Shown here piece by piece: positions 1-38,741 of a stretch of DNA of 64,000 nucleotides. How positions within the stretch are numbered: position 1 is the stretch's first letter; every line of letters starts with the position of its first letter. This DNA comes from Myxococcota bacterium (lineage in GTDB: Bacteria > Myxococcota_A > UBA9160 > JAFDDA01): the NCBI GenBank assembly GCA_965228475.1, contig OZ245817.1:2816001-2880000 (forward strand), written 5' to 3'. The notes below the pieces were generated by a model. That model searched no databases. It worked only from the letters and a program-made list of their open reading frames with translations, and was not told the DNA's origin. A program made the position numbers and the translations under genes.

Positions 1-213
1 GTCCAGATCATCGTGACCAACCTGGACGCCGTGGAGGACCTCTCCCACGGCATGTGCGTCTCGAAGCACGACGTGAACTTCCTGATCAACCCTCGGGACA
101 CGAGGAGCATGACCTTCACCGCAGGGGCGCCCGGCGTCTACTGGTACTACTGCCCCTGGTTCTGCCACGCGCTGCATCTCGAGATGCGGGGGCGGATGAT
201 CGTCGAGGCGTAG
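1..213 (+). CDS. nosZ: Nitrous-oxide reductase, C-terminal CuA domain (5' truncated by window edge)
   Basis: DLSHG...[26 protein letters not shown]uA motif; followed by nosR/D/F/Y/L. Confidence 0.95.
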
Positions 214-215
214 CC

Positions 216-2309
216 CTGCGGAACCGCCCCTTCTGGCGCGCATGCTTGCTGTGGGTCGGGGCGGCCTGGGTCGTCGCCTCCGGGAGCCCGGCGCGGGCGA
301 GCGGCGAAGCCCCGAGCGAGCTCGACTGCGCGGCCCTGCCCTGCGCCGAGGTCCTGTCCGGCGCGGTCTCCTTCGAGCCCGCGGAGGGTGCGAAGCACTG
401 GGTCGGGCATGACGCCGCCGGAGAACTCTCCGGCTGGGTCGCGCTCTCGACGGACTTCGTCGACATCAAGGCGTACTCGGGGAAGCCGCTCGTCACGCTG
501 GTGGGCCTCGACCCGGGCGGCGTCATCACCGGGGCGCGGGTGGTCCATCACAGCGAGCCGATCCTACTGATCGGCATCCCGGAGTCCGCACTCACGGACT
601 TCGTCGGACACTACGCCGGCAAGCGCGCGACCCAGCGGATCGTCGTCGGGCGCTCGGACGACCCCGATACGATCGCGGTCGACGCCATCTCCGGCGCGAC
701 CGTCACCGTCCTCGCCCAGAACCACACGATCCTCGAGGTCGCGCGCAAGCTCGCGGTGAACCTCGGCGTGATCGACGCCGCCTCGATCCGGCCGGGCCGC
801 TTCCTCGCGGAAGAGGAGCCCTGGACCTTCGAGCAGATGATCGACGAGGGCGCCTTCGGCCGCCTGACCGTGACCGAAGCCGAGATGGGCGTCTCCGATT
901 CGAAGGCCCCCTTCATCGACCTCTACTTCGCGATCGCCGACGCACCCCACATCGGCCGCGCGCTCATCCGCGAAGGCGACTACCGCCACTACATGAGCCG
1001 GCTCGAACCCGGCGAACACCTCGTCGTGGTCCTCGGCCGGGGCAGTGGCTCCTTCAAGGGTTCGGGCTTCGTGCGCGGCGGCGTCTTCGACCGCGTCCGC
1101 CTCGAGCAGGGCCTGCGCGAGATCTCCTTCCGCGACACCGACTACTACAACCTCTCGGGCACGCCCCTCGAAGGCGCTCCCGCCTTCGACGAGGGCGCGG
1201 TCTTCATCGCCCGCCGGGGCCTGCTCGACCCCGGAGACCGCTACGACCTCGTCTTCCTCGGCAGCCGCTACGACCGTAAGAGCGCCTTCAGCCGCGACTT
1301 CCGCGAGTTCCGCGCCTCGCACCGCCTGCCCCGCAGCGTCTACCAACTCGAGGGCGCCGCGGACCTCGCGCCCTGGCAGCAGGCCTGGGTGAACCGGCGC
1401 GCGGACGCCGTCGTCCTCACGATCTTCCTGCTTGGCGTGATCGGCGTCTTCGTCGCCCGCCGCACCACGACGGGAGCGCCCGGACGCATCGAACGCATCC
1501 ACGTCGCGGCCCTCGTGGTGAGCTTCTTGCTCGTCGGCGTGTACATGGGCGCGCAGCCCTCGGTGACCCAGATCCTGACGCTGCTCGGCTCGGCCGCCGG
1601 CGAGTGGCGGTGGGAACTCTTCCTGAGCGAGCCCCTCATCTTCATCTCCTGGATCTTCATCGCCGTCGTGTCCGTCATCTGGGGACGCGGCGTGTTCTGC
1701 GGCTGGGTCTGTCCCTACGGCGCGATGACCGAGCTGCTCTTCAAGGCGTCCCAGAAGCTCGGACTGCGGAGCTACGAACTCCCCGACCGCATCCACCTGA
1801 AGCTCCGCCACCTCCGCTACGCCGTCCTGCTGATCCTCGTCGTGGCCTTCTTCGTCGACAGCGTGCTCGGGGAACGGATGGCCGAGGTCGAGCCGTTCAA
1901 GTCGACCTTCCTCGTGCCCGCGTGGGAGCGAAGCTGGCCCTTCCTCGCCTGGTGGCTGGCCCTGCTCGCGCTCTCGACCTTCATGTACAGGCCCTTCTGC
2001 CGCTACGTCTGCCCGCTGGGCGGGGGTCTCGCCCTGTTCGGGAGCTTCCGCTTCTCGGGCCCGCGGCGGCGGCGCTTCTGCACGAGCTGCAAGATCTGCA
2101 CGCGTGGATGCGAGCCGCGGGCCATCCGGCCCGATGGCACCATCGACTCTCGCGAGTGTCTCTCCTGCATGGAGTGCGAAGCCAACTACCGCGACGCCGC
2201 GGTCTGCCCTCCGCTCGTCGGCGTGAAGCGCCTCGAGGTCGGGGACTTCATCGCCGAGGCGAAGCGCGAGAAGCTGGCGAAGCTCAAGCGCGATCTGGAG
2301 CGAGTTTGA
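216..2309 (+). CDS. nosR: NosR/NirI-family FMN-binding, FeS membrane protein (start uncertain; CTG at 216 proposed)
   Basis: Flavinylation motif DAISGATVT; FCGWVCPYG and FCRYVCPLG motifs; C-terminal CTSCKICTRGC / CLSCMEC; TM helices. Confidence 0.92.
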   Translation: MRNRPFWRACLLWVGAAWVVASGSPARASGEAPSELDCAALPCAEVLSGAVSFEPAEGAKHWVGHDAAGELSGWVALSTDFVDIKAYSGKPLVTLVGLDPGGVITGARVVHHSEPILLIGIPESALTDFVGHYAGKRATQRIVVGRSDDPDTIAVDAISGATVTVLAQNHTILEVARKLAVNLGVIDAASIRPGRFLAEEEPWTFEQMIDEGAFGRLTVTEAEMGVSDSKAPFIDLYFAIADAPHIGRALIREGDYRHYMSRLEPGEHLVVVLGRGSGSFKGSGFVRGGVFDRVRLEQGLREISFRDTDYYNLSGTPLEGAPAFDEGAVFIARRGLLDPGDRYDLVFLGSRYDRKSAFSRDFREFRASHRLPRSVYQLEGAADLAPWQQAWVNRRADAVVLTIFLLGVIGVFVARRTTTGAPGRIERIHVAALVVSFLLVGVYMGAQPSVTQILTLLGSAAGEWRWELFLSEPLIFISWIFIAVVSVIWGRGVFCGWVCPYGAMTELLFKASQKLGLRSYELPDRIHLKLRHLRYAVLLILVVAFFVDSVLGERMAEVEPFKSTFLVPAWERSWPFLAWWLALLALSTFMYRPFCRYVCPLGGGLALFGSFRFSGPRRRRFCTSCKICTRGCEPRAIRPDGTIDSRECLSCMECEANYRDAAVCPPLVGVKRLEVGDFIAEAKREKLAKLKRDLERV

Positions 2310-3580
2310 GCCGGGCGAACGCGAGCCGCGCGGTCGCGGCCGCATTGGCCTTCCTGGCCGCCGCGGTCCATCCCGCAGCCTCCGCGGAGGTGATCCGCGT
2401 CGGGGAACACGCCCCGACGCCCCAGGCCGCCCTGGCCGCGGCCCGGGAGGGCGACGTGGTCGAGCTGCCCTCGGGCCGATGGCCCGGACCTCTCCGGCTC
2501 GACCGACCCGTCACGCTCCGCGGAGCCGGTGGGATCCTCGACGGCGGCGGGGTCGGAACGGTGCTCACGATCGACGCCCCCGGAGCCGTGGTCGAGAACC
2601 TGGCGCTCGCGAACGGCGGGGCCGACGTCGGCGCCCCGGACGCCTGCATCTTCATCACGCCGCGCGCGCAGGGCGCGGTGGTGCGCGGCAACACGATGCG
2701 GGGCTGCGCGTTCGGTGTCTGGGTCCATGAGACCCACGGCGTCGAGATCCTCGACAACCGCATCGACGGCCGAACCGACCTGCGCGTCGCGGACCGCGGA
2801 AACGGGATTCACCTCTTCGATGCGAGCGAGCTGGTCGTGCGCGGAAACGTCGTGCGCCAGGCACGGGATGGAATCTACGTCTCCGCCACCGAAGACAGCC
2901 TGATCGAGGGCAACCGGACCGAGAACCAGCGCTTCGGCATTCACTACATGTACTCGTACCGCAACACCCTGCGCGGGAACGCCAGCCACGACAACGTCGT
3001 GGGCATGGCCCTCATGGAGAGCCTCCACCTCGTGGTCGAGGACAACGAGGCCTTCCGCAACGAGCGCAACGGCATCCTCTTCCGCGACGTCCAGTTCTCG
3101 ACGATCCACCGCAATCGGCTCGAAGGAAACGGCTACGGCATGTTCTTCTTCTCGAGCACGGAGAACTCGATCGTCGGCAACCGCATCGCGGGCAACGACG
3201 TCGGGCTGAAGATCTGGGCGGGCACCCGGCGCAACGTCATGGAGGAAAACCAGATCGTCGGCAACCGCCAGCAGATCTTCTACGTGGGCGCGGAGGATCA
3301 GATCTGGGGTACCGAGGGCCGCGGCAACCATTGGGGCGACTACATCGGCTGGGATCAGGACGGGGACGGCATCGGCGACCGTCCGCACCGCGTCGACAGC
3401 TTCAAGGCACGGCTCACGTATCAGTATCCCGCCGCGATCCTGCTCCTGCACAGCCCCGCGCTCGAGATGCTCTCGCACCTTTCCGACTCGCTCCCGCTCC
3501 TGCAGACTCCGACCGTGGTCGATCGCTCTCCGCTGCTCGACGAGGCGGCCTCGCCGGCGCTCGATGAGGCCTCGCCATAG
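2306..3580 (+). CDS. nosD: N2O reductase maturation protein NosD (beta-helix)
   Basis: DRGNGIHLF, RDGIY, RFGIHYMYS, GNHWGDYIGWD-DGDGIGD motifs; TTG start overlaps the nosR TGA, GGAG upstream. Confidence 0.93.
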   Translation: MSRANASRAVAAALAFLAAAVHPAASAEVIRVGEHAPTPQAALAAAREGDVVELPSGRWPGPLRLDRPVTLRGAGGILDGGGVGTVLTIDAPGAVVENLALANGGADVGAPDACIFITPRAQGAVVRGNTMRGCAFGVWVHETHGVEILDNRIDGRTDLRVADRGNGIHLFDASELVVRGNVVRQARDGIYVSATEDSLIEGNRTENQRFGIHYMYSYRNTLRGNASHDNVVGMALMESLHLVVEDNEAFRNERNGILFRDVQFSTIHRNRLEGNGYGMFFFSSTENSIVGNRIAGNDVGLKIWAGTRRNVMEENQIVGNRQQIFYVGAEDQIWGTEGRGNHWGDYIGWDQDGDGIGDRPHRVDSFKARLTYQYPAAILLLHSPALEMLSHLSDSLPLLQTPTVVDRSPLLDEAASPALDEASP

Positions 3581-4485
3581 ACGCCTTCACCGCATCCGGG
3601 GTCCGGGTGCGCCTGGGCCGCGTCCAGGCGCTCGACGGCGTCGACGTCACCCTCGCCGGCGGGCGGGTGACCATGCTCGCGGGCCCGAACGGCGCCGGGA
3701 AGACGACGCTCATGAAGGTCGTCCTCGGGCTCGTGCGAGCCGACGCGGCGTCCTTCGCCGTGGACGGCGCGCCGATCGCCATCGACAGGGCCTGGAAACG
3801 GCGGGTCGGCTACCTGCCCGAGGCCGTCGCCTTCTCGGACAACCTGAGCGGCCAGCAGGTGCTCGGCTTCTTCGCTCGCGCGCGCGGCGTCGCGGGCCAA
3901 CGCGTCGACGCGGTCCTCGAGCAGGTCGGGCTCGCCCACGCGCGCCGGCGTGCCGTGCGCGGCTACTCACGCGGCATGCGCCAGCGGCTCGGCCTCGGCG
4001 TCGCGATCCTCGCGAGCCCCGAGTTCCTGATCCTCGACGAACCGACCGCGGGCCTCGATCAGGAAGGCCTCTCGGTGCTCTGGGCCGTTCTCGACGAGTG
4101 GCGGGCCGCGGGGAGGCTGGTCTTCGTCTCGACCCACGACCTCGCACTCACCGAAGGCCGCGTCGACGAGATCTGCCTGCTGCGCGCGGGACGCGTCCTC
4201 CTCCAGGGGAGCGCGGAGCGTCTGCGCCGCGAAGCCGACCTGCCCCACCGCGTCTGGTTCGAACTCGACGCGGCCGAGGGGCGGCGCTTCGAGGAAGCCG
4301 TCGCGAGCTGGGGCCGGGGTGGCGTCGAGCGCGACGGGCATCAGCTACGCGTCGACGTCGCACCCGGCCACCTGCTCGAGCTGATGCGGATCCAGGGAGA
4401 GTTCCCGGAGGCGATCCGCAGCCTGCGGGTCGAGGAAGCCGCCTTCGACCGCGTCTACGAGACGCTCCTGGCGGCCGGATCGTGA
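3577..4485 (+). CDS. nosF: ABC transporter ATPase NosF (ATA start at 3577 proposed; first canonical start is GTG 3607)
   Basis: Walker A GPNGAGKTT, signature YSRGMRQR, Walker B LILDEP; lies between nosD and nosY. Confidence 0.9.
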   Translation: MDAFTASGVRVRLGRVQALDGVDVTLAGGRVTMLAGPNGAGKTTLMKVVLGLVRADAASFAVDGAPIAIDRAWKRRVGYLPEAVAFSDNLSGQQVLGFFARARGVAGQRVDAVLEQVGLAHARRRAVRGYSRGMRQRLGLGVAILASPEFLILDEPTAGLDQEGLSVLWAVLDEWRAAGRLVFVSTHDLALTEGRVDEICLLRAGRVLLQGSAERLRREADLPHRVWFELDAAEGRRFEEAVASWGRGGVERDGHQLRVDVAPGHLLELMRIQGEFPEAIRSLRVEEAAFDRVYETLLAAGS

Positions 4486-5276
4486 GCCGCGTCGGCTACG
4501 CCCTCGCCCGCCACGAACTCTCGGAGCGCATTCGGGACCGCTGGGTGCTCGTCGTGAGCGTGCTCTTCGCCCTGCTCGCCTCGGGCGTGAGCCTCTACGG
4601 CCGCGTCGCCGAGGCCGACCTCGACGCCATGACCGGCCCGAGCCTGGTCACGCTCTCGGCACTCCTGGTCCCGCTCGTCGCCATGGTGCTCAGCCACGAC
4701 GCGATCGTGGGAGAGCGGGACCGCAACACGCTCGGTCTCCTGCTCTCGCTCCCGGTGAGCCCGCTCGAAGTGGTCGCCGCCAAGTACGTCGGCCGAGCGC
4801 TCGCCCTCACCCTGGCCGTCGTCTTCGGCCTCGGGGCGGCCATGCTCGCCAGCGGTCCGGCGGGCGCGCGCACCCTCCTCGCCCTGGCGGGGCCGACCCT
4901 CCTGCTCGGCCTGGCCTTCCTCTCGCTCGGCCTGCTCATCTCGGCGTGCACGCGCCGCCAGGTCGCCGCCGCGAGCGCCGTGGTGGTGGTCTGGTTCCTC
5001 CTCGTCTTCTTCTACGACCTCGCCCTGCTCGGCGTGCTCGTCGTCTCCGACGGCGCCGTCTCCCAGCAGGCGGTTTCGTCGCTCGTCCTCGCCAACCCGG
5101 CCGGGCTCTTCCGGCTGCAGATGATGCACGCCTTCGCGGGGCCCGAGATGCTCCGCACCCTCGGCATGAGCGTCGCGATGCCGGAACCCGGAACCCTCTG
5201 GCTACTCTGGGCGGCATGGCTCGTGCTGCCCGTCGCGGTCAGCGGAATCCTCCTCACTCGAGCGAAGGTGACCTGA
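4482..5276 (+). CDS. nosY: ABC permease NosY
   Basis: HDAIVGERDRNTLGLLLSLP, FFYDLALLG, LANPAGLFR; multiple TM; GTGA overlap with nosF. Confidence 0.9.
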   Translation: MSRVGYALARHELSERIRDRWVLVVSVLFALLASGVSLYGRVAEADLDAMTGPSLVTLSALLVPLVAMVLSHDAIVGERDRNTLGLLLSLPVSPLEVVAAKYVGRALALTLAVVFGLGAAMLASGPAGARTLLALAGPTLLLGLAFLSLGLLISACTRRQVAAASAVVVVWFLLVFFYDLALLGVLVVSDGAVSQQAVSSLVLANPAGLFRLQMMHAFAGPEMLRTLGMSVAMPEPGTLWLLWAAWLVLPVAVSGILLTRAKVT

Positions 5277-5818
5277 TGCCCCGAACTCCGACTCGCCTGA
5301 CCCTTGCCATGACCGCGGCCGTCGCCGCGGCGCTGGCCGTCGCCTGCACCGCCGAGGACGCCTCGGAGCCCGCCGCGCCGCTCACGACCGTCGCCATCGA
5401 CGACCAGGCGGGCGCCGTCTGCGGCATGATCGTCCGGGATCAATCGGCCCCCCGGGCCCAGGTCGTGCACCGGGACGGCGAGCGCGCCTTCCTCTGCTCG
5501 ATCGGCGACCTGCTCGTCCACGTCCTGGCACCTTCCCCCCACGGCAAGGCGGAAGCGATCTGGGTCGAGGTGCTGACGCCCGAGCAGGATCCGGCCGAGA
5601 GCCACACGGGCCCCCACGAGTGGGTGCGGGCCGAGGACGCCGTCTACGTCGTCGGGATCGAGCGGCGCGGCATCATGGGCCCGCCGGTCCTGGTCTACCG
5701 GACGCGAGAAGACGCGGAGCGGGTCACCGCCGGGACGGCGGGCCGGGTTCTCGACTTCGAGGGCCTGAAAGGTTGGTGGCAGGAACGCGGGAGCGAAACG
5801 CCGGGCCACCAGCACTAG
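5276..5818 (+). CDS. nosL: NosL copper-chaperone lipoprotein
   Basis: Lipobox LAVAC; VCGM..D..PRAQ, FLCSIGDL, W..AEDAVYV, GIMG motifs. Confidence 0.85.
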   Translation: MPRTPTRLTLAMTAAVAAALAVACTAEDASEPAAPLTTVAIDDQAGAVCGMIVRDQSAPRAQVVHRDGERAFLCSIGDLLVHVLAPSPHGKAEAIWVEVLTPEQDPAESHTGPHEWVRAEDAVYVVGIERRGIMGPPVLVYRTREDAERVTAGTAGRVLDFEGLKGWWQERGSETPGHQH

Positions 5819-5844
5819 CCAAGAAGGACTGTACAGTCCCGCCC

Positions 5845-7065
5845 ATGTCGAAGACGGTCGTGGTGGGGGGCGGTGCGGCCGGGCTGATGGCGGCGATCTT
5901 CGCCGGGCGCGGCGGTGCATCGGTGACCGTGCTCGAGGGCGCACGCGCCTGCGGCCTCAAGATCCTCGTGAGCGGCGGCGGACGCTGCAACGTCCTCCCC
6001 ATCGAGTCCGATCTCGGCGACTTCTACACCTCGGGCTCGCGCAACGTGCTCGCCCGGCTCTTCCGCACCTGGGGCCTCGCGGAGGTGACCGCTTTCTTCG
6101 AGCGCGAGCTCGGCATCCCGCTCCTCCGTGAAGAGGCGACGGGCAAGCTCTTTCCCGAGAGCGGCTCGGCGCGCACCGTTCGCGACCGCCTCGTGGAAGA
6201 GGCGCGCGCGGCCGGCGCCACGATCCACGTCGGCCACCGCGTCACGGGGATCGAGCCCGTCGACGACGGCTTCGTGGTGCACGGGATGCGGGAAGGCCGC
6301 AGCGTCGACGTCGCGGCCGAGCGCATCATCCTCGCCTCGGGCGGCCAGTCGCTCCCCAAGAGCGGCTCGGACGGCGCGGGCTACGGGTTCGCTCGGCGGC
6401 TCGGCCACGAGCTCGTCGAGCGCTATCCGGCGCTCGTCCCCCTCCACTCCCCCGACCCGGAGCTGCGCGAACTCTCCGGGCTCTCCGTGCCCGTCCGCTG
6501 GACGGCGCTCCGGGGCCAGAAGGCGATCGAGACCCGCACGCGTGAGTTCCTGTTCACCCACCGCGGCTACTCGGGCCCGGCCATCCTGGACGCCAGCCAC
6601 TGGGTGACGCGCGAGGGCGCGGGCCTGCGCGTCGCCTGGGACGGCCTCGACGAAGAGGCCTGGCGCCGGCACTTCGAGGCCGAATCCCGCAAGCGGATCG
6701 ACGTGCTGACGAGCGAGCGCCTCCCCCGTCGGCTCGCCGAACTCCTGCTCGCGCGCGCCGACGTTCTCGGCAAGACCCGGGCCCGCAGCCTGAACCCGAA
6801 GCAGCTGCGCCGCCTGCTGCGACTGCTCTCCGCCTTCGAGCTCCCCGTCGAGGGAGACGGCGGCTACGCCAAGGCCGAGGTCACCGGCGGTGGCGTCGCG
6901 CTTGGCGAGGTGAACCCCTCCACGCTCGAAAGCCGCCGAACCCCGGGCCTCTACCTCTGCGGCGAGATCTTCGACACGATCGGCCGCATGGGCGGGTTCA
7001 ACTTCCTCTGGGCCTGGATCACCGGGCGGCTGGCCGGGGAGAGCGCGGCCCGCCGCGGCCCCTGA
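5845..7065 (+). CDS. HI0933/BaiN-like NAD(P)/FAD-dependent flavoprotein
   Basis: GGGAAG, KILVSGGGRCN, LFTHRGYSGP, AEVTGGGV, GGFNFLWAW.TG. Confidence 0.9.
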   Translation: MSKTVVVGGGAAGLMAAIFAGRGGASVTVLEGARACGLKILVSGGGRCNVLPIESDLGDFYTSGSRNVLARLFRTWGLAEVTAFFERELGIPLLREEATGKLFPESGSARTVRDRLVEEARAAGATIHVGHRVTGIEPVDDGFVVHGMREGRSVDVAAERIILASGGQSLPKSGSDGAGYGFARRLGHELVERYPALVPLHSPDPELRELSGLSVPVRWTALRGQKAIETRTREFLFTHRGYSGPAILDASHWVTREGAGLRVAWDGLDEEAWRRHFEAESRKRIDVLTSERLPRRLAELLLARADVLGKTRARSLNPKQLRRLLRLLSAFELPVEGDGGYAKAEVTGGGVALGEVNPSTLESRRTPGLYLCGEIFDTIGRMGGFNFLWAWITGRLAGESAARRGP

Positions 7066-7122: not shown

Positions 7123-8037
7123 TCAGCCTTCGCGCCGGTTTCCCGCGATGCCGAGGCCGAGCAGGCTCAGGGCCAGCAGGACCGCCGTGCCGGGCTCCGG
7201 AACGGTGATGCTGAGGCTGAAGAGGCCGTTGTAGCCCTCGCTACCCGTCGCGGTCTCGTCGGCCGTGAAGCCGCCGCCCGCCACGTTGTTGAAGCCGAAC
7301 ACGGCCGCGGCCTCGTCGCCGCCGTTGGCCGAGCTGCAGATGAAGCCCGAGCAGTCGGCGTTCGAGAACGCGTCCAGCGTGAAGCTGATGACCATGTTGA
7401 TCGTGTCGTCACCGACGCCCGCGATCTGGTTCAGGTTCGAGTCGCTGAACACGGAGCTGCACCCGCCCTGGCCGCACGAGGTGCTGGCCGCGGTCGAGAG
7501 TGAGTAGTCGTTCCCGTCGAAGATCACGTTGACGTCGGTCATGCCGGCGTTCGACGCGTTCTGGGTGCCGACCTCGACCGAGGTGTCGTCCACGATCTTG
7601 ACGAAGCCCGAGGCGTTCTGGTCGATGTCGAGCGTCCAGCTGTCCAGCGGGTTGTCCACGTCCACCGTGAAGGTGAGCGAGTAGTTCACGTGGAGAGCCT
7701 GGTACTCGTTCGTGAAGTCCGTCAGCGCATCCGAGGCCGCCGCCGCATCGAGCGTGAAGCTCGTGTTCAGCGTACCGGCGCCGGTGTCCGACACGGTGCC
7801 ACCGGTGGTGATCCCGGTGACGTTCAAGTCGTTGACCAGCGCGTTGTCGAAGCAGGCGCTGTTGCCGGGGTTGTACGCGACGAGCCCGCCGCTGTTGTCG
7901 CCGTTCGAATTCTGGCATTGACTGTTGTTGGTTGCGACGTAAGAGAACGTCGCGGCACTCGCCTGTCCGGCGAAGAGCCCGAAGGCCGCCAGCACCGCCA
8001 GGTGCCGCGCGCCCATCCCGTAGCTGCAGTTGCGCAT
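7123..8037 (-). CDS. PEP-CTERM sorting domain protein (secreted; Asn/Ser/Thr/Cys-rich)
   Basis: Signal peptide ending AGQASA; C-terminus VPEPGTAVLLALSLLGLGIAGNRR; GGAAGGG upstream of ATG 8037. Confidence 0.9.
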   Translation of the reverse strand: MRNCSYGMGARHLAVLAAFGLFAGQASAATFSYVATNNSQCQNSNGDNSGGLVAYNPGNSACFDNALVNDLNVTGITTGGTVSDTGAGTLNTSFTLDAAAASDALTDFTNEYQALHVNYSLTFTVDVDNPLDSWTLDIDQNASGFVKIVDDTSVEVGTQNASNAGMTDVNVIFDGNDYSLSTAASTSCGQGGCSSVFSDSNLNQIAGVGDDTINMVISFTLDAFSNADCSGFICSSANGGDEAAAVFGFNNVAGGGFTADETATGSEGYNGLFSLSITVPEPGTAVLLALSLLGLGIAGNRREG

Positions 8038-8154
8038 CTTCCGATGATCCCTTCCCGGCCCGGGGCGGCGGTGAAGCCGAAGCCCGGGCACGTGTCTCGT
8101 TGACATGGGAACGCCTGCAACCCGCAACAGGAGCCCCTTCCCGACCGCGGGCTA

Positions 8155-8441: not shown

Positions 8442-11438
8442 ATGTCGCGCTCGCTACGCACCGGGCTCTCCCTTCTGCTCGTCGTTTCGGCCTTGCCGGG
8501 TGCGGGCTGCCAGCAGGAACCCGTCGACCCGGCCGCCGAACGAGCGGCGCTCGCATGGGAGCAGATGGTGGCGCGCGAGGAAGCCTTGCGCGCACTCGGC
8601 CCGGCGCTCCGCGACCTCGGCCGCTCCGTGATGAACCTTCGCCTCCCCGACCCGAGCGCACGAGCGCGCTTCGGCGTGGTAGCGGTGACGGACGATCTCG
8701 CCGTGCCCACCGCCGCGGGCGCGCCTTCGGGCGTCGCCCGGACGCGAGCCCTCACGGTCCAGCCGATGGGGGAGCCCGCCGCCCCCTCTGGCATCTCGCT
8801 CTGGGACGATCTCTTCGCACGATTCGCCTTCTTCGAACACGCGTCCTTCCAGGCCGAGGCGGGTGATTTCGAAGATGCGGAGCGAACGCGGCTCACCGCG
8901 GCGGTCCGCTTCCGCGCAGCGGGCCGACTCGAAGGAGGATCGCGCGCCGCCCTGCGCGGCCAACTCGAACTCGGCTTCGAGCGAGTCGGCGACCACCCGC
9001 CGGACGACCCGGAGGCTTGGCGCATCGCGTCCTGGCGCACCCTCGGCTTCGAGTTCCAGGAGAGCGCCGGCGCGATGTTCCGAGAGGTCCTCGACGCCGC
9101 CCTGCCCGACCCCGAGGCGCTCCGACGGGCGCGCGAATCCAAGCACGCGCGGCTGGCCGCTGCCCGCCTGGCCGATCCGGACGGCTTCGAGCCGCCGCAC
9201 GCCCATTTCTTCGTGGGCTCCCAGGACCGTCACCCCGGCGTCTCGGTCGTGGACGTGAACGCCGACGGGCTCGACGACGTCTACGTGATGGCCCGCTTCG
9301 GACCGAACCAGCTCTTCGTGAATCGCGGCGACGGCACCTTCACCGAGCAGGCCGCGGCCTACGGCCTCGACGTGGAGGACCACACCGCCGCGGCGCTCTT
9401 CGCCGACTTCGACAACGACGGCGATCCGGACGTCTTCCTCGGCCGGACGCTGGCGCCGAGCCTGTATCTCGAGAACCGGGAAGGTCGCTTCGTCGACACG
9501 TCGAGCGCAGTCCTCGGGGGAGCCGCGCTCCCGGCCCTCGTGAGCTCCCTCGCCGCCGCCGACGTGGACGGCGATGGCCTGCTCGACCTCTACGTCTCGA
9601 CCTACGCGGCGCAGATGCTCGTGGCCGAGGCCGTCGCCAAGGATCGTTCGCGCCGCGAGCTCGGGACGGCACCCGCCACGAGCCTCCTCGAGGCCTTCCT
9701 TCCGCGCCCCGACGCGGAGCGCCTCATGGCGGCCACCCGCGAGGCAGGAGCTCACGAGTACATGTCGCTTCCCGGACCCCCGAACCTGCTCCTCCGCAAC
9801 GCCGGAGGCGGACGCTTCGAAACGAGTCCGGCGGGCGTCGAGCGCGCCTTCCGCAACACCTTCCAGGCCACCTTCGCCGACGTCGACGCCGACGGCGACC
9901 CGGACCTCTACCTCGCCCACGACTTCTCCCCGAACCAGATGCTGCGCAACGAGGGCGCGGGCCGTTTCGCCGACGTGACGGAGCCCACGGGCACCGCCGA
10001 CGTCGGCTTCGGCATGGGCGCCGCCTTCGGCGACTACGACCGTGACGGGCGCGAGGACCTCTACGTCTCGAACATGTTCAGCAAGGCCGGAAAGCGGATC
10101 ACGACGAGCTTCGACGGGGCCGACCCCCGGCTCGCGAAGATGGCCCGCGGCAACACCCTCTTCCGCAACGCCGGTGAGCTTGCCGGCGAGCGCTTCGAAG
10201 TCGTGTCGGGCACCGAGCCGCCGGCCCTCGCCGTCGAGGAGGCCGCCTGGGCCTGGGGCGGGCAGTTCCTCGACGCCGACAACGACGGCTTCCTCGACGT
10301 CTTCGCGCTCTCGGGCTACTACACCGCGCCCACCGACGTCGAATCCTTCGTGGACATCTGAAGCGACTGGTGGCGCGCGGTCGTGCGCACGGATCCGGCG
10401 CTGGAGTTTCCCGACGCCTTCGCCTTCGAGGGCGTGAATCTTCCCGGCCGCCACTTCACGGACGGCGTCTCCCAGAGCGGCCGGGAGCGGAACCACTTCT
10501 TCCTGAGCCGCGAAGCGGCGCGCTTCGACGACGTCTCCGGACTTTCCGGACTCGACCACCCCGCCGACGGCCGCGCCTTCGCCGTACTCGACTTCGACCG
10601 CGACGGCTTCCCGGACCTCGCCGTGGTGAACGCCAACGAGCCGTTCTTCCAGCTCTTCCGCAACGAGCTCGGCGATGCCGGCGGACGCTTCCTGGTCGTC
10701 ACCCTCGAGGGCGCCAACCGCACCGCCGCAGCGCGCCCCGGGTCGAGCCCGCGTGACGGCGCCGGGGCCCGCGTCGAAGTCCGCGTCGGTGAGACGCGGC
10801 TCCTTCGCGAGTTCCGGCTCGGCGAAGGCTTCGCCGCCCAGAACCATGGACGCCTGCTCTTCGGCCTCGGCGAAGCGGACCGCGCCGAGGCGGTCGAAGT
10901 GGTCTGGCCGTCCGGGGAGCGCCAGCAGCTCACCGCGGTCGAAGCCGGCACCCGTGTGCATTTCCGCCAGGACGCCGACCCCGAACGGCTCGCGTGGACG
11001 CCGACCCCGCCGCCGGCCGCAGCGCCCCGCGACGGCGGCGCCCGGCTCCTCGCGAACCTCCCGGACCCGAGCGGCCGCCCGCTCCGGGTCCTCACCACCC
11101 AGGCCAACTGGTGCGAAGCCTGCGTCGCCGAGCTGCCGCACGTCGCCCTCCTCCGGGACGCCTTCCAGGACGCGAGCTGGTGGGGCATCCCCGTGGAACC
11201 CGCGGACGACCGGGCCGCGCTCGAACGCTGGCGTGCCGAGCACCGCCCGGCCTACGAACTCCTCGTCGACCTTCCGCTCGCTGCACGCGCGGCCGCCTCG
11301 GCGCACGTGAAGCGCGCCCTCGGCCGGGAGGCCCTGCCCGCCACGATCGTGACGGATGCGGAGGGCCGGGTGCTCCGGACCCGCTTCGGGCCGCCGACGA
11401 TCTCCGAGCTTCGCGCCCTGCACGCGAGCCTCCCCTAG
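8442..11438 (+). CDS. FG-GAP/CRTAC1-like + ASPIC/UnbV + thioredoxin-fold (CxxC) lipoprotein; in-frame TGA at 10359-10361 is a putative selenocysteine
   Basis: ORFs 8442-10361 and 10383-11438 share a frame and are separated only by TGA; repeat architecture continues across it; SECIS-like hairpin follows; lipobox GAGC; NWCEAC near C-terminus. Confidence 0.78.
10370..10390 (+). promoter_or_regulatory. Putative bacterial SECIS element
   Basis: GCGCGC-GGTC-GTGCGC stem-loop; upper stem starts 11 nt after the TGA; extendable by GT/AC with a bulged G. Confidence 0.7.
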
Positions 11439-11448
11439 GATCCCCCAC

Positions 11449-12249
11449 GTGAGACGAAGACTCGCGAGCCCGGCCCTGCTCTGCGCACTCCTCTTGGCCG
11501 TGAGCGGCTGTGGGCCCGAGCGCCGCTTCGAGGCCGCGCGGCGCGGAGCCGTCGAGTACTTCGCGCGAGAGGTCCGGACGGTCGACCCGGGCTGGGCCAA
11601 CCTGTTCGGCTACCTCCATCGGCGCTTCGGCCTCGAGCTCGTGAACGCGGCCGGCGCCGCGCTCCACGAAGTCCCGATGGAGCAGGAGCGCCCGGAGCTC
11701 GCGGCCATCTTCCGGCGCCTCGTCGATCCGGGCGCCCGCGTCCCGAAACGGACGATCGCCGAGCTCTCGACGCCGATCGACCGGATGACGGCGAGCGCCT
11801 TGCATTGCGATCGCATCCGCCTGCCCGAGAACTGGAACGACGTGCTCCGCGAGGCGACGCGCATCGGCGGGTACGCCCTCACCCACGCCGCGCTCGCGAG
11901 CCAATGGACCCTCGAGCAGGGCTGCCGGCCGGAGATCGAGGTCGCCGTCCTGCAGGAGCGTCAGATCGAGGCGCTCGGCGCGCTCGTGGACGGACGCGAC
12001 ACCCTCACCGTCGGGAACGCGACCGACCTGTGGATCGAGGCGCTCGTGATGCTCTACTACCTGGGCGCGGCGGACCGCATCGACCCCGCGTGGCTCGAGG
12101 CGCTGCTCGATGCCCAGCGCCCCGACGGCGGCTGGCCGCTCGGGCCCGGCGCGAAGCGCTCGGACCCGCATCCGACGGCCCTCGCCCTCTGGGTCCTGCT
12201 CGAGAACCTCGAGCCCGACGCGGCCCCCATCCGCTGGATCGCGCGCTAG
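11449..12249 (+). CDS. Hypothetical lipoprotein with prenyltransferase/squalene-cyclase-like QW repeat
   Basis: Lipobox AVSGC; LLDAQRPDGGW...HPTALALW; GTG 10 nt after the upstream stop. Confidence 0.65.
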   Translation: MRRRLASPALLCALLLAVSGCGPERRFEAARRGAVEYFAREVRTVDPGWANLFGYLHRRFGLELVNAAGAALHEVPMEQERPELAAIFRRLVDPGARVPKRTIAELSTPIDRMTASALHCDRIRLPENWNDVLREATRIGGYALTHAALASQWTLEQGCRPEIEVAVLQERQIEALGALVDGRDTLTVGNATDLWIEALVMLYYLGAADRIDPAWLEALLDAQRPDGGWPLGPGAKRSDPHPTALALWVLLENLEPDAAPIRWIAR

Positions 12250-15155: not shown

Positions 15156-16550
15156 ATGGCCTTCTCCGAACGCCTCACCGCTCTCGACGCATCGTTCCTG
15201 GACATCGAGGACCCGGGCACCCACATGCACGTGGGCGCCGTGCTGCTGCTCGACGCCGCGCCGGTGCGCGACGCCGACGGGCACCTCGATGCCGGCCGCA
15301 TCACCCAGATGGTCGGCGCCCGCATCCACGACTTCCCGCGCTATCGCCAGCGGCTGGAGACCATCCCCGTCGAGGGCCACCCGGCCTGGGTGGACGATGC
15401 GGACTTCAACCTCGACTACCACGTCCGGCACACGGCCCTGCCCGCGCCCGGGGACATCCGCCAGCTCAAGCGCCTGGCCGGCCGCATCATGTCCCAGAAG
15501 CTCGACCGCGGAAAACCGCTGTGGGAGATGTGGCTCGTCGAGGGGCTCGAGGGCGACCGCTTCGCAGTGATCGCGAAGGTGCATCACTGCATGATCGACG
15601 GGGTTTCGGGCGTCGACCTGATCGCGGCCCTGCTGCGTCCGACGCCGGACGCGGAGGTCGAAACCGCTCCGCCCTGGGAGCCGCGGCCCGCGCCCTCGGG
15701 CGGCGCCCTGCTCTCCTACAGCGTCGCGCGGCGTGCGCTGGCCCCGCTGACCCTCGCCCGCAAGGCCGGAGACGCCGTCCGCTCCCCCCGCAGGACGATC
15801 GGCTCCCTGCGCGACGGCCTGGATGCGGTGACCGAGGTGATCGGCGCGGGCCTCACCGGGGCCTCGCCCACGTCACTCAATCCGGAGGCCATCGGGCCGC
15901 ACCGCCGCTTCGATTGGATCCGCTTCGAACTCGAAGCCATGCGCAAGCTCGCCCACTCGCGCGGAGGGACCCTGAACGATGCGGTCCTCGCCACCGTCGC
16001 CGGAGCCCTCCGCTCCTTCCTGCGCAATCGCGGCGACGACGTCGACGAGCTCGACTTCCGCGTGATGGTCCCGGTCAGCACCCGCGAGAAGGACGAGCGC
16101 GGAAAGCTCGGCAACCGCGTCTCGCAGATGATGGTGCCCCTGCCGGTGAACGCCTCGATGCCCCAGGACCGCCTCATGCGCATCCTCGAGGCCACGAGCG
16201 AGGCGAAGCGTTCGGGCCAGGCCTACGGCGCCGAGCTGATCGAGAACTTCAGCGATTGGATCATGCCGGGGCTCGTCACCCAGACCGTGCGGCTCCAGGC
16301 ACGCTCCCTGCCCTTCAACCTGGTGGTGACCAACGTGCCGGGGCCGCCGGTGCCGCTCTACCTGCTCGAAGCCCCGCTGCTCGAGATCTATCCCGTCGTG
16401 CCGCTCTTCAGCAACCAGGCGCTCGGGCTGGCGCTCTTCAGCTACAACGACGCCCTCTACTGGGGTCTCAACTCCGATTGGGACCGCGTGCCGGATCTCC
16501 ACGACTTCGTGGAGGCGCTGATCAGCTCCTGGCAGGAGCTCGAGAAGTAG
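15156..16550 (+). CDS. Wax ester synthase/diacylglycerol acyltransferase (WS/DGAT)
   Basis: RLTALDASFL, catalytic HHCMIDG, NLVVTNVPGP; GGAGGG RBS. Confidence 0.93.
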   Translation: MAFSERLTALDASFLDIEDPGTHMHVGAVLLLDAAPVRDADGHLDAGRITQMVGARIHDFPRYRQRLETIPVEGHPAWVDDADFNLDYHVRHTALPAPGDIRQLKRLAGRIMSQKLDRGKPLWEMWLVEGLEGDRFAVIAKVHHCMIDGVSGVDLIAALLRPTPDAEVETAPPWEPRPAPSGGALLSYSVARRALAPLTLARKAGDAVRSPRRTIGSLRDGLDAVTEVIGAGLTGASPTSLNPEAIGPHRRFDWIRFELEAMRKLAHSRGGTLNDAVLATVAGALRSFLRNRGDDVDELDFRVMVPVSTREKDERGKLGNRVSQMMVPLPVNASMPQDRLMRILEATSEAKRSGQAYGAELIENFSDWIMPGLVTQTVRLQARSLPFNLVVTNVPGPPVPLYLLEAPLLEIYPVVPLFSNQALGLALFSYNDALYWGLNSDWDRVPDLHDFVEALISSWQELEK

Positions 16551-19500
16551 CTCCCGGGACGCCGCCCCGTCTCCGGCGGTTGCGCATCACCAGGATCAGA
16601 CTCAAGAGCGGCGCGACCTCTCCGCCGAGGCCGCAGTTCATCGGCCACTCGTTGTCGTCTTCGGGGCTCGCGCAGTCGGGGTCCTGGCCGAAGTCCACGA
16701 GACCGTCGAGGTCGTTGTCGACGCCGTCGGCGCACTGGGGCGGCGGGGGCGGTGTGAAGATCTCGGTGACGTGCAGGAGCGCGTCGAAGGCGATCCGCGC
16801 GCCGATGTGGCGCGAGACGATGTCGTCCTGGGGCGGATGGATGCCGCCCCAGATCCGCGAGAGGCTGGTCTGGTCGGAGGCGTCGTAGTACGTCGCATAC
16901 TGCAGCTTCAGCGGGACGCTCGGGCCGTCTTCGAAGACCAGGAAGGCATCCTTCGGCGCCTCGAACTCGCCGTAGCCACCGGGGAAGTACGGCGAGCCCG
17001 TGAGCGAGTCGAGCACCATGGCGGCGGCCCGGCTGTACGCGCTGTGGCCGGACGGGAACCCGGCGAAGGGCGGCGAGACGAAGCTCGGCCGCTGGTAGGG
17101 CCACCAGTCCTTCGCGAGGATCCAATCGACGCCGGCCACGTCCAACTCGGGGTCGACGATGAAGCCCGGGCCCCGCCAGGCGAGGATCGCGATCTCGTTC
17201 ACGTGCTCCGCGAGGTGCTCGTGCCGCTCGCCCGGAGCGCTGCTCGCCACCGTCACCAGCTCGATGAACCCCGGTCGGAGCTCGAAGCCTTCGGCGTCGT
17301 AGCGCGGGAGGCCGGGGTCGGAGCGCTGCCCGCGCTCGGCCATGGCGCGCAGAGCCGACACCGGCCGGACGTAGTCGTACCAGCCCTTCATGCCCCAGAC
17401 GGCCACGGCCACGTCGTGCATCGTGCCGCCGAGGGCGAGGTAGAGCTTCACGTCCCACTCGAGGTCGTCGAGCAGCGGGCCCCGGCCGCCGATCCGCTTC
17501 TCGGCCAGGTTGTCGCTCACGTAGTTCGCGATCGCGAACCAGTGGCCCGGCGGCGTCTCCGAATCCGGTCCGTCCGCCCAGAACTCCGCGAGGACCCGCG
17601 CGTAGTCGGCACGCGGAACCACCTGGGGCTCGTAGGGCAGCCCGGTCGCGGGGTTCATCGCGTGGCCGGTTCCCCAGTCCCACCCCTGCTCGAAGTCGTA
17701 GTACGTCCGCCACTCGTCCGGCTCCGGCAGCGGCGCGTTGCCGTTCGATGCCGGCGAGATGTCCCACATCACACCGTCGGCGGGGTCGAGGTGGCTGCTC
17801 CAGAGCGCGACCATCTCGAAACCGTCGAGGTAGTCCTCCGCGGTCGGGGTGCCGAGCAGCGGGGGCGGGCCCGGGTCGTGGTAGACCCAATAGTCGAACC
17901 CTCCGCGCGAGAAGACCGTCGCGTCCTCGGCGGCCAACGAGAACGGCACGACCTGACCCCACTCGGGGCTCAGGAAAGGCGGCGTACCGCCGGGGATCGG
18001 GTTCCCGCTCTGGTCGATGAAGAAGTCGAGCGCGAGAGGCTGCCAGAGGTTCGGGAACAGGATGCCCGGGTTGCCCGGAAGCGTCACGATGAGCGGCGGA
18101 TTCGACGGTTCGTAGTACTGGTTCGCGTAGCCGCCCTGCTCGTTCGATCCGTCCGCCAGGCCGAAGGCCAGCACGGCTTCGGCGATGCGGTTGCCGAGCT
18201 CCGCTGCGGGGTCGGCGCCGCCCGAGGTGGCGGTGTAGCTCGGGTCGTAGCCGAGCTGCGTCATGCGGGCGTCGAAGGAGATCTGGGAAAAGGATGCGCC
18301 CGGCGACGCGGCGAAACGTGCGGAGAGGATCCGGTAGGCCGCGTAGCTGATCGTGCGGGCGCGCGCGGCCGGGACGTCGGCGGCGACGGAGCGCTCTTCG
18401 TGAAGCACCTGGGCCGGGGTCGTTGCGTAGGCGGCCCAGGCGTCCCACATAGCGGCGGAGACGTGGAACAGGTTTCGCGCATGGACGGTCGGGCGCGCGA
18501 AGTCGCGGCGGATCGCGTTCAGGAGTTCCTCGTTCCACTGCCGGGCGACCGAGCGGTCGTCCTCGCAGGCATCGCCGATGCCGTCGAGATCCGCGTCCTC
18601 CTGGAGCGGGTTCGCCACCACGGGGCAGTTGTCCTCGGTGTTCGGCCAGCCGTCCCCGTCGGCGTCGTCCGGCTGGCAGACGTCCCCGATCCCGTCGACG
18701 TTCGCGTCCTCCTGGCCCGGGTTCCCGTGGCCTGGGCAGTTGTCGTCGGCGTCGTCGATGCCGTCGGCGTCGGCGTCGACTTCGAGGTAATCGGGCGTCC
18801 CGTCCCCGTCCGCGTCGTCGTCGGCCGGGTTGCCGTTGCCGTTCGCGTCTTCGTCGCGGGTCGGCACGCCGTCGCCATCGTCGTCGGCGTCGAGCGCGTC
18901 GATGGTTCCGTCGCCGTCGGAGTCCCGGGGCGAGGCGACGGAGCCGATCTCCTGTCCGTCCGACAGGCCGTCGCCATCGCTGTCGGCGGCCGCCGGATTC
19001 GTGCCGAGGACCGCTTCGTCGGCATCGCTCAGGCCATCCCCGTCGCCATCGGGCTGGCCCACGGGCGGCACGAGCACGATCTCCTGATTGACCGCGACCG
19101 TGCCGAAGATCGCGGTCCCGAGCCCGGGCCAGGTGGCGGTCAGCTGGTGGATCGGCCCGGGGTGGTCGCCGAGGCCGAAGTGGAGCGTCCGCTCGCTCTC
19201 GCCGAGGAAATGGCTCGAGGCGCCGACGTGCCGGACCTGGACCGGCCCGCCGGGGTCGGCCTGGAGCGTCACGACCGCGCCGATGCCGTCGGCGTTGAAG
19301 CCCGGGCCGCCCGCGATGCGCACGCGCAACCATTCGTTCCCGCCGTCTTCGTCGTTGCGATAGAGCACGCCCGTGGCCGCGTTGTTCGCCACGAACAGGT
19401 CGAGATCTCCGTCCCGGTCGTAGTCGAAGGTCAAGAGGCCCTTGCCCGAGCCGAGATCCGTGAGCCCCAGGCCGGCCGAGACCTCCGGCATCGCCCCGGG

Positions 19501-20808: not shown

Positions 20809-20948
20809 GCTCAGCCCCAGCGCTCCAGCTCCCATGCTACTCCAGCCTCGGACGCAACCGATGCGCAGAAGGATCGTCGGCAACCCGGGCCTACGGCTGC
20901 GGCGCGGAGAGCCTGCACGCGGCTCGATCCATCCGGTAGGATCCGCCC

Positions 20949-38244: not shown

Positions 38245-38718
38245 ATGGCCAGCATGCACGACTTCTCGATGGAATCGATCACGGGCGACACGGTCGCGCT
38301 CTCCGAATACGAAGGCGACGTCTGTCTGGTCGTGAACCTCGCCAGCCGCTGAGGCCTCACCGGCCAGTACGCAGGTCTGCGTACCCTTCACGAAGACAAC
38401 GACGGCTTCCAGGTGCTCGGCTTTCCGTGCAACCAGTTCGGCGCCCAGGAGCCCGGGACGAACGCGGAGATCCTCGCGTTCGCCCAGAACGAGTACGGCG
38501 CGAACTTCCCGATGTTCGCCAAGACCGAGGTCAACGGCGACGGCGCCTGCGAGCTCTATCGCTTCCTCAAGGCCGAAGCCCCCGACGAGGAGGGCAACCC
38601 GGACATCCCCTGGAACTTCACGAAGTTCCTGGTGGGCCGGGACGGTCGGGTGCTGAAGCGCTATGCGCCGCAGGTCACGCCCGAGCAGATCGCGGAAGAG
38701 CTCCCGTCCCACCTCTAG
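38245..38718 (+). CDS. Selenocysteine-containing glutathione peroxidase (TGA 38350-38352 = Sec36)
   Basis: AAGGAGG RBS; LVVNLASR-U-GLTGQY places TGA at the catalytic residue; LGFPCNQFGAQEPG; WNFTKFLV. Confidence 0.93.
38367..38384 (+). promoter_or_regulatory. SECIS element of the GPx gene
   Basis: Perfect hairpin GTACGCA-GGTC-TGCGTAC 14 nt after the TGA; GCAGGTCTGC core resembles the E. coli fdhF SECIS apex. Confidence 0.85.
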
Positions 38719-38741
38719 AACGATCTCCGCGAAAGGACCGA

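Follow-up and report, generated by a model that had tools for sequence, protein, structure and literature searches.

Results

One reading frame interrupted by a single TGA

We analyzed a stretch of 64,000 nucleotides (nt) from the genome of a Myxococcota bacterium (GenBank assembly GCA_965228475.1, contig OZ245817.1, positions 2,816,001 to 2,880,000 of the forward strand). This whole stretch is referred to here as the window, and all positions are counted from its first letter. At positions 8442 to 11438, on the plus strand, lies a gene of 998 codons that ends with a TAG stop (11436 to 11438) and in which the UGA at codon 640 (10359 to 10361) is predicted to be read as selenocysteine (Sec). 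An earlier note on this DNA had claimed that two listed open reading frames (ORFs) are one frame split by a single TGA at codon 640. A check of the frame and of the read-through context confirmed this. The ORF at 8442 to 10361 (639 amino acids) and the ORF at 10383 to 11438 are in one frame, with the single TGA at 10359 to 10361 between them, and reading the TGA through yields a 998-residue protein with the context SGYYTAPTDVESFVDI-U-SDWWRAVV. The segments DADNDGFLD, SGRERNHFF, DFDRDGFPD and WCEAC were all present in this protein. Its only cysteines are C23 (at the lipobox position), C891 and C894, and the mature form would carry only U640, C891 and C894.

The TGA was also checked against other sequence data. 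A marine-metagenome contig that is 99% identical to this region, with 10 differences, was unaltered at positions 10359 to 10361. Contigs from two runs that belong to different studies were identical over positions 9900 to 10900, and either may be the source. A sequencing error at the TGA was rejected, because the same TGA is seen in the metagenome contig and is conserved across species.

Domain architecture and export of the read-through product

All features of the gene lie on the plus strand. In the read-through sequence, a signal peptide (8442 to 8510) ends in a lipobox-like LPGAG-C23, which is atypical. It is followed by a family-specific N-terminal domain (approximately residues 24 to 260; 8511 to 9221) that matched no Pfam family and that, used as a query, retrieved 226 representative clusters at an E value of ≤0.001 and 108 at ≤1e-10. 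FG-GAP/VCBS β-propeller repeats with Dx[DN]xDG calcium-type motifs then extend up to the Sec loop (9252 to 10358; five Pfam matches to FG-GAP_3 and three to FG-GAP), and the homolog alignment had invariant Asp and Gly columns in the propeller. Alignment of homologs defines the motif D638-x-U640-S-x-x-W-R at the Sec site (10353 to 10376). Downstream of it are a UnbV_ASPIC domain (residues 773 to 839; 10758 to 10958; Pfam, 62.2 bits) and a TlpA/ResA-like thioredoxin-fold domain (residues 874 to 977; 11061 to 11372) with the active-site motif W-C891-E-A-C894 (WCEAC, residues 890 to 894; 11109 to 11123). The AhpC-TSA score of the latter domain (24.7 bits) was slightly below the 26-bit Pfam cut-off. 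The family profile, compared with the PDB, matched TlpA (1jfu, E value of 2.8e-15), and it also matched ResA, StoA and the N-terminal domain of PilB (approximately 1e-15 to 1e-6). Together, the Pfam matches, the WCEAC motif and the match of the family profile to TlpA/ResA bear out the fusion of FG-GAP, ASPIC/UnbV and CxxC thioredoxin-like domains that had been proposed before any search was made.

The closest solved structure is that of CRTAC1 (cartilage acidic protein 1; PDB 9etn), which shares with the window protein an FG-GAP/VCBS propeller followed by UnbV_ASPIC and was matched by the family profile at an E value of 4e-35. Since this alignment skips the Sec-bearing segment, the Sec loop is specific to the bacterial subfamily, as are the N-terminal and thioredoxin-like domains. 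Vertebrate CRTAC1 has a C-terminal EGF-like domain; the Pfam scan of the window protein found no EGF-like family, and the thioredoxin-like domain stands in that place. The same scan found no glutathione peroxidase (GPx) or peroxiredoxin (Prx) domain around the Sec, which sits in a propeller loop and not in a UxxT or TxxU motif. An NCBIfam scan of the protein gave no selenoprotein model and only a subthreshold match to ResA.

Homologs were colinear with the window protein from about residue 8 to residue 998, and some relatives have TPR repeats after the thioredoxin-like domain. The N termini of the homologs display canonical lipoboxes (FLIGC, ALTAC, LTSC and LAAAC), signal peptides or single transmembrane anchors. 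The earlier note had described an exported Sec lipoprotein. The N termini of the homologs support the export, while the lipobox of the window protein itself, LPGAGC, is atypical; the selenoprotein is probably exported and held by a lipid anchor.

Conservation of the UGA across genomes

Among 401 genomes of the window's phylum, 75 had a relative at an E value of ≤1e-15. Exactly one TGA was present in 39 matches from 29 of the 401 genomes, and these were the best full-length matches. From this phylum, 37 loci were fetched. In 23 of them, the TGA fell in the column of codon 640, within D-x-U-[ST]-x-[FWYL]-W-R; five (four of them distinct) had it in a second context, DDL-U-MDLVIENVGRRS; eight had Cys (DYC[ST]xFW); and one was a paralog without the site. 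The loci with the second context form another Sec subgroup of the same superfamily (L024, L025, L026 and L066), which has no thioredoxin domain and has its own hairpin, GAACGUC-GGUC-GACGUUC, 18 nt past the UGA.

The TGA occupied the same column in all four loci examined from metagenome-assembled genomes (MAGs), namely, those of a Pirellulaceae MAG, two other Planctomycetota and one Acidobacteriota. Of 301 Planctomycetota genomes, 54 had matches at an E value of ≤1e-40, with up to six copies per genome. These made up 108 match rows, of which 97 contained one TGA, 2 contained a TGA plus another stop and 9 contained none. All 30 of the fetched planctomycete loci had the TGA in the same motif and the same column. 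An FG-GAP/ASPIC paralog that is free of TGA and includes a TPR stretch (L071:350-2866) immediately precedes the Sec gene, in the same orientation, in one Planctomycetota MAG.

In an alignment of 30 sequences, the Asp at position -2, the Sec/Cys column and Ser677 were invariant, and the Trp at position +4 was nearly so; in an alignment of 29 sequences, the Sec/Cys column and the Asp at -2 were both invariant. The conserved TGA is as the earlier note had predicted. Its other expectation, Cys in this column, was seen rarely, the usual replacement being Glu or Asp, as described below.

A SECIS-type hairpin downstream of the UGA

A hairpin, GCGCGC-GGTC-GTGCGC (10373 to 10388, plus strand), begins 11 nt past the TGA. 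We assigned it as a putative selenocysteine insertion sequence (SECIS) from its fold, pair counts and the criteria for bacterial SECIS elements (bSECIS). Its stem pairs positions 10373 to 10378 with 10383 to 10388, and its apical loop, GGUC (10379 to 10382), starts 17 nt past the UGA. As given in a 2026 catalogue, the bSECIS criteria comprise a loop of 3 to 9 nt, a stem of 4 to 16 bp, a G in the first two loop positions, a distance of 16 to 37 nt from the UGA to the loop and a minimum free energy (MFE) of ≤-7.5 kcal/mol (PMC13188914). The window element lies within all four bSECIS limits, with a 4-nt loop, a 6-bp stem, GG at the start of the loop, a spacing of 17 nt and an MFE of -21.1 kcal/mol for a stretch of 51 nt. 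A scan of the window against Rfam gave no family at the gathering score.

Comparable hairpins accompany the TGA in the other loci. A simple scan located a hairpin 9 to 18 nt past the UGA in 27 of 27 Sec loci, with a stem of at least 6 bp in 25 of them and with loops that read GGUC, GGUCG, AGUUG, GGU or similar. In the same scan window, all eight Cys-form loci had a stem of at most 5 bp or none. The mean MFE was -14.3 kcal/mol for the Sec loci versus -7.3 kcal/mol for the Cys forms. In subgroup B, the GGUC hairpin was retained, though the peptide that it encodes is unrelated.

Covariation was examined in 12 sequences that share the same register. In these, 97.2% of the cells paired, by a structure derived from the same sequences, and two pairs had changed on both sides (7 cells). 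None of 500 shuffles reached the covariation score, and controls slid along the 12 sequences paired in 8 to 68% of cells. Compensatory changes across homologs thus accompany the SECIS that the earlier note had placed 3' of the TGA. We also built a covariance model, solely from 12 sequences of the window's phylum. It found the site in 14 of 34 loci of other phyla at an E value of ≤0.01 and in 13 more at E values of 0.03 to 0.6, and it found nothing at the site in nine TGA-less controls. Its realignments are unfit for pair counting, as the model opens a long loop insertion. Across the loci compared, the combination of TGA column and hairpin is far beyond chance, as it is repeated in dozens of homologous loci that span three or more phyla.

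Capacity for Sec decoding

The genome is a single contig of 5.0 Mb, and the window has a GC content of 70%. Sec machinery, on which the reading proposed in the earlier note depends, was found in full: selA (530 bits), selB (311 bits), selD (257 bits) and a tRNA-SeC with anticodon TCA. ARAGORN found no tRNA in the window itself. The window contains a second UGA-Sec gene, which codes for a GPx (38254 to 38760, plus strand) and has the codon at the catalytic position (38350 to 38352; LASR-U-GLT). Its hairpin, GUACGCA-GGUC-UGCGUAC, lies 17 nt downstream of the UGA and has the same GGUC loop as the element described above, a likeness that had been noticed at the outset. Elsewhere in the genome there is a further GPx gene, which is free of TGA.

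The distribution of selA follows that of the TGA forms. In the window's phylum, TGA forms occur in 29 genomes, of which 27 have selA, versus 248 of 401 overall; of the two genomes that lack it, one is an assembly of 1140 contigs and the other is 81% complete. The corresponding numbers for Planctomycetota were 49 of 50 with a TGA form versus 221 of all 301 genomes, and selA was detected in all four Planctomycetota and Acidobacteriota MAGs with TGA forms.

Residues that replace Sec

We tabulated the residue in the Sec column for the 120 best database relatives. The column is spanned by 77 of these; the other 43 stop one residue short of it and are thus truncated calls. The motif context was recognizable in 66 of the spanning relatives of this set: 63 have Glu (DLESNLWRTMVR), and Cys (P0008), Ala and Ser occur once each. 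In the nine TGA-less planctomycete copies, the residue was Glu in four, Asp in two and Arg in two, and one copy could not be aligned. Cys is therefore rare at this position, being limited to one close form (P0008) and the eight distant DYC[ST]xFW loci. No aligned homolog has Trp in the column. The absence of Trp agrees with the earlier note, the replacements that we tabulated being Glu, Asp, Cys, Ala, Ser and Arg. The Glu and Asp forms retain the Asp at -2, the Ser/Thr at +1 and the Trp at +4.

Quick maximum-likelihood trees, rooted at the midpoint and with support only from the Shimodaira-Hasegawa-like approximate likelihood ratio test (SH-aLRT), placed a large Glu clade within the Sec-bearing subfamily 1. 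Within subfamily 2, a planctomycete Glu/Asp clade (support, 97) was sister to a Sec form, and the Arg pair (support, 100) was sister to another Sec form. The nesting of these clades implies three or more losses of Sec, in at least two of which an acidic residue took its place. Copies with Glu, Asp or Arg share genomes with Sec copies (G488, G648, G709 and G657), which indicates that they are paralogs and not the result of losing the Sec trait.

Retention of the CxxC in Sec forms

Among the Sec forms with a C-terminal domain, CxxC was present in 18 of 19 in the first set, the exception having CxxxC, and in 25 of 25 in planctomycetes. The close Cys form P0008 keeps WCKSC. The domain can still be aligned in 47 Glu forms, and both cysteines remain in only 6 of them; the decayed motifs of the others are varied (SxxS, NxxY, SxxC, SxxA and others). 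CxxC was found in none of the six planctomycete Glu/Asp forms, even though their domain can be aligned. Eight Sec forms lack the thioredoxin domain altogether, and in four of these a Cys directly precedes the Sec (DC-U-S). Two of the four DC-U-S forms (L048, L049, L050 and L052) have a further Cys ten residues on (WRAVAC).

The retention of CxxC with Sec, and its decay without Sec, suggest that Sec640 is functionally coupled to a resolving or protecting pair of thiols. On this comparative evidence, Sec640 and the CxxC likely work as partners. The earlier note went further and proposed that the CxxC of the protein could re-reduce the selenol, which would make a redox enzyme. Retention of CxxC does track Sec, in keeping with the first part of this proposal; the redox enzyme itself is unproven, given the Glu and Asp replacements.

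Neighborhood in the window

Ten nt past the stop of the selenoprotein gene begins an ORF for a 266-residue lipoprotein (11449 to 12249, plus strand; lipobox LLAVSGC; no Pfam family). In the closest relative (L022), a homolog with 53% identity immediately precedes the ortholog of the selenoprotein gene; no such neighbor was found beside the other homologs. On the other side, a divergent ORF of 334 residues (7123 to 8127, minus strand) has a weak C-terminal PEP-CTERM match (E value of 6.6e-4) and no other family. Genes for a NosR-like protein (FMN_bind and Fer4_5), NosD and an ABC-2 transporter (54 to 5276, plus strand) resemble a nitrous-oxide reductase accessory cluster and are followed by an HI0933-like flavoprotein (5620 to 7065). 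A large FG-GAP/ASPIC paralog with thrombospondin type-3 repeats and DUF6851 (16522 to 20883, minus strand) has neither a TGA nor the D-x-X-S-x-x-W-R motif. No gene partner was conserved across the four MAG loci and the window, and a promoter and terminator scan around the selenoprotein gene found nothing.

Discussion

We consider it highly probable, from comparative evidence, that the gene at 8442 to 11438 is a single ORF in which UGA-640 is decoded as Sec. According to our model, decoding would proceed through the SelB/tRNA-Sec pathway, guided by the hairpin at 10373 to 10388. The product would comprise the family-specific N-terminal domain, a CRTAC1-like FG-GAP propeller, ASPIC/UnbV and a C-terminal TlpA-like domain. 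Sec640, placed in a subfamily-specific loop with the motif D-x-U-S-x-x-W-R, would act together with the W-C-x-x-C of the same protein: the selenol would be oxidized, or captured as a selenenylsulfide, and then reduced by the CxxC, which in turn would be re-reduced by a membrane reductant of the DsbD/CcdA type. The genome has two DsbD_TM genes. The data show the recoding context, the conservation, the SECIS, the Sec machinery and the covariation of Sec with CxxC, whereas the export, the electron source, the relay between Sec and CxxC and the chemistry at Sec are the parts of the model that we infer. For the model as a whole, that is, one gene, SECIS-guided Sec640, an exported propeller-ASPIC-TlpA protein and a Sec-CxxC relay, we estimate a probability of roughly 60%. 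With regard to the chemistry at Sec, reduction of an oxidized substrate (of the peroxide, sulfoxide or disulfide type) and a role as ligand or nucleophile stand about even; the TlpA-like domain and the general habit of selenoproteins fit a redox cycle.

Several observations count against this model. The tallies count related sequences as if they were independent and so overstate the support. In all 23 ungapped sequences, a one-base shift of the register between subfamilies lowers the share of paired cells to 65.9%, and the pair counts on the 12 same-register sequences are circular insofar as the structure was taken from them. The stability of the hairpin is undistinctive in DNA with a GC content of 70%: the z score in the window is -0.66, 52 of 200 shuffles reach a fold as stable, and the mean z score over the Sec loci is -0.71. 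The hairpin also overlaps the conserved peptide W-R-x-V-V-R, and its nucleotide conservation is in part coding for that reason. As to the relay, the CxxC is still kept in 6 of the 47 Glu forms, is replaced by CxxxC in one Sec form and is missing, along with the whole thioredoxin domain, from eight more. Finally, Sec is replaced mainly by Glu or Asp and not by Cys, with the surrounding motif kept, which is hard to square with a purely redox role.

This last observation leads to an alternative in which Sec640 is not a redox catalyst. The selenolate, which is anionic at neutral pH, would be a metal ligand, or a nucleophile or base, beside the invariant Asp638, and the CxxC would only keep it reduced in the oxidizing periplasm. 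The Glu and Asp forms would then fill this role, or one akin to it, with no need of a reductant. A precedent is found in enzymes with molybdenum or tungsten (Mo/W) bound to bis-pyranopterin guanine dinucleotide (bisPGD), in which the metal ligand varies among Sec, Cys, Ser and Asp. In the present family, Glu or Asp replaced Sec at least twice independently, nested among Sec forms, and Cys is rare. The conservation of Asp at -2, Ser/Thr at +1 and Trp at +4 in the Glu and Asp forms indicates that the site is still in use there. The CxxC decayed exactly where the chalcogen was lost, which is expected if protecting the selenol is its only job. The pKa is 5.2 for a selenol and 8.3 for a thiol (PMC13188914), which also fits a selenolate in such a role. 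However, the invariant columns include no conserved His/Cys/Met cluster for a soft-metal site, and the Arg found at the position in two planctomycete copies fits neither a ligand nor a nucleophile. Moreover, the Glu, Asp and Arg copies stand beside Sec copies in the same genomes and may be noncatalytic paralogs, and redox enzymes make up most of the known selenoproteins according to the 2026 catalogue (PMC13188914). We regard this alternative as possible but doubtful. Equally tentative is its fuller form, in which Sec is ancestral and dominant and is interchangeable with carboxylates and not with Cys, the selenolate being a nucleophile or metal ligand by an invariant Asp on a β-propeller, guarded by a built-in TlpA-like reductase.

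The remaining alternatives concern the decoding of UGA-640 as Sec. If the TGA were a genuine stop, the locus would hold two genes or a recent pseudogene, with the downstream frame unjoined. Gene callers treat the locus in this way, 43 of the best 120 and 75 of the best 150 relatives end before the column, and a GTG is present at position 10383. This GTG lies inside the hairpin, however, and the frame contains no in-frame stop other than the TGA. Across about 60 loci from three phyla, the frame is open and the protein is conserved on both sides of the TGA; homologs with Glu, Cys, Ala or Ser are each one unbroken polypeptide that is colinear from about residue 40 to residue 995; and TGA forms occur almost only in selA-positive genomes. 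A genuine stop is thus very improbable. Read-through by a near-cognate tRNA (Trp or Cys) or reassignment of TGA, in place of tRNA-Sec, would also produce an in-frame TGA, but nothing specific speaks for either, and both can be set aside with similar confidence, given the presence of selA, selB and selD and of many other genes without an internal TGA, the use of TGA as an ordinary terminator in relatives of the gene, the SECIS-type hairpin at canonical spacing that is absent from the Cys, Glu and Asp forms, and the lack of any homolog with Trp at the column.

The features that favor decoding as Sec are those of genes that depend on SelB and SECIS, of which Escherichia coli fdhF is the archetype: an in-frame UGA, a small loop that starts with G 16 to 37 nt further on and the Sec machinery (PMC13188914). 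The window protein differs from the products of such genes in its scaffold, which is a β-propeller with ASPIC and not a thioredoxin fold or a Mo/W enzyme, and in that its Cys homologs are rare and its Glu and Asp homologs common. The C-terminal domain, with its W-C-x-x-C, resembles TlpA, ResA, StoA and the N-terminal domain of Neisseria PilB, a fusion with MsrA/B. In PilB, the TlpA-like domain is fused to the catalytic domains that it recycles. The client there is a Cys-based Msr domain, whereas the putative client here is a Sec in a propeller loop. Mammalian thioredoxin reductase has a vicinal Cys-Sec redox center at its GCUG end. The DC-U-S of the four members without a thioredoxin domain resembles this GCUG, and an intramolecular selenenylsulfide would be possible in them; the DC-U-S pair, unlike GCUG, is internal, in a loop and not C-terminal, and the window protein has an Ile before the Sec and a separate CxxC domain.

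Databases hold the family mostly in pieces. Of the best 150 of the 226 representatives with the N-terminal domain, 75 end exactly before the Sec column and 6 more end in the D-x that precedes it; 62 are shorter fragments, 3 span the column with Glu and 2 span it with Ser. Where the relatives have names, these are "VCBS repeat-containing," "CRTAC1 family" or "hypothetical." A search of the ESM Atlas returned only the clusters of the family itself. The Atlas also has "UnbV_ASPIC" clusters of 225 to 330 residues, which are commonest in Planctomycetota, Verrucomicrobiota and Acidobacteriota and may be the second halves of split Sec genes.

Table 1 of the 2026 catalogue, with 119 families and subfamilies, has no FG-GAP, ASPIC or CRTAC1 entry (PMC13188914). 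A selenoprotein with FG-GAP, ASPIC, UnbV or CRTAC is likewise absent from the main texts of deep-Sep, BSepDB and the GOS paper (2008) and from the deep-Sep supplements, and our literature searches returned nothing relevant on FG-GAP, ASPIC or UnbV selenoproteins, nor on a crystal structure of the CRTAC1 propeller. There is one precedent. Table S9 of Kim et al. (PLoS One, 2016) lists four planctomycete candidates with the same domain description, each split in two genes by a UGA; three of the four were positive with bSECISearch, and the closest match had a non-Cys residue (PMC4807772). The main text of that paper mentions neither ASPIC nor FG-Gap, the candidates being confined to the supplementary list, which gives no alignment, thioredoxin domain, distribution or replacement pattern (PMC4807772). 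From this description and our survey of Planctomycetota, we infer that the four candidates belong to the same family. The suggestion in the earlier note that this is not a classical selenoprotein family therefore holds as far as the catalogue and NCBIfam are concerned, and must be qualified by the four candidates of 2016.

The gene in the window almost certainly represents a widespread bacterial selenoprotein family that catalogues have omitted and that gene callers cut in two. With 99 TGA copies in 301 Planctomycetota genomes and 39 in 401 genomes of the window's phylum, it would be one of the larger bacterial selenoprotein families and would be absent from the standard catalogues; its genes are systematically truncated at the TGA in public databases. 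The motif D-x-U-S-x-x-W-R together with the GGUC hairpin offers a simple annotation rule for joining the halves. The family would also give selenium a new scaffold, a CRTAC1-like propeller. If the selenolate does prove to be a nucleophile or metal ligand that is exchangeable with carboxylates at this site, this would be a selenoenzyme chemistry without a described counterpart. Nature provides both Sec forms whose CxxC is intact and Glu/Asp forms in which it has decayed, and their comparison can show what the site does and why Sec is used over Cys.

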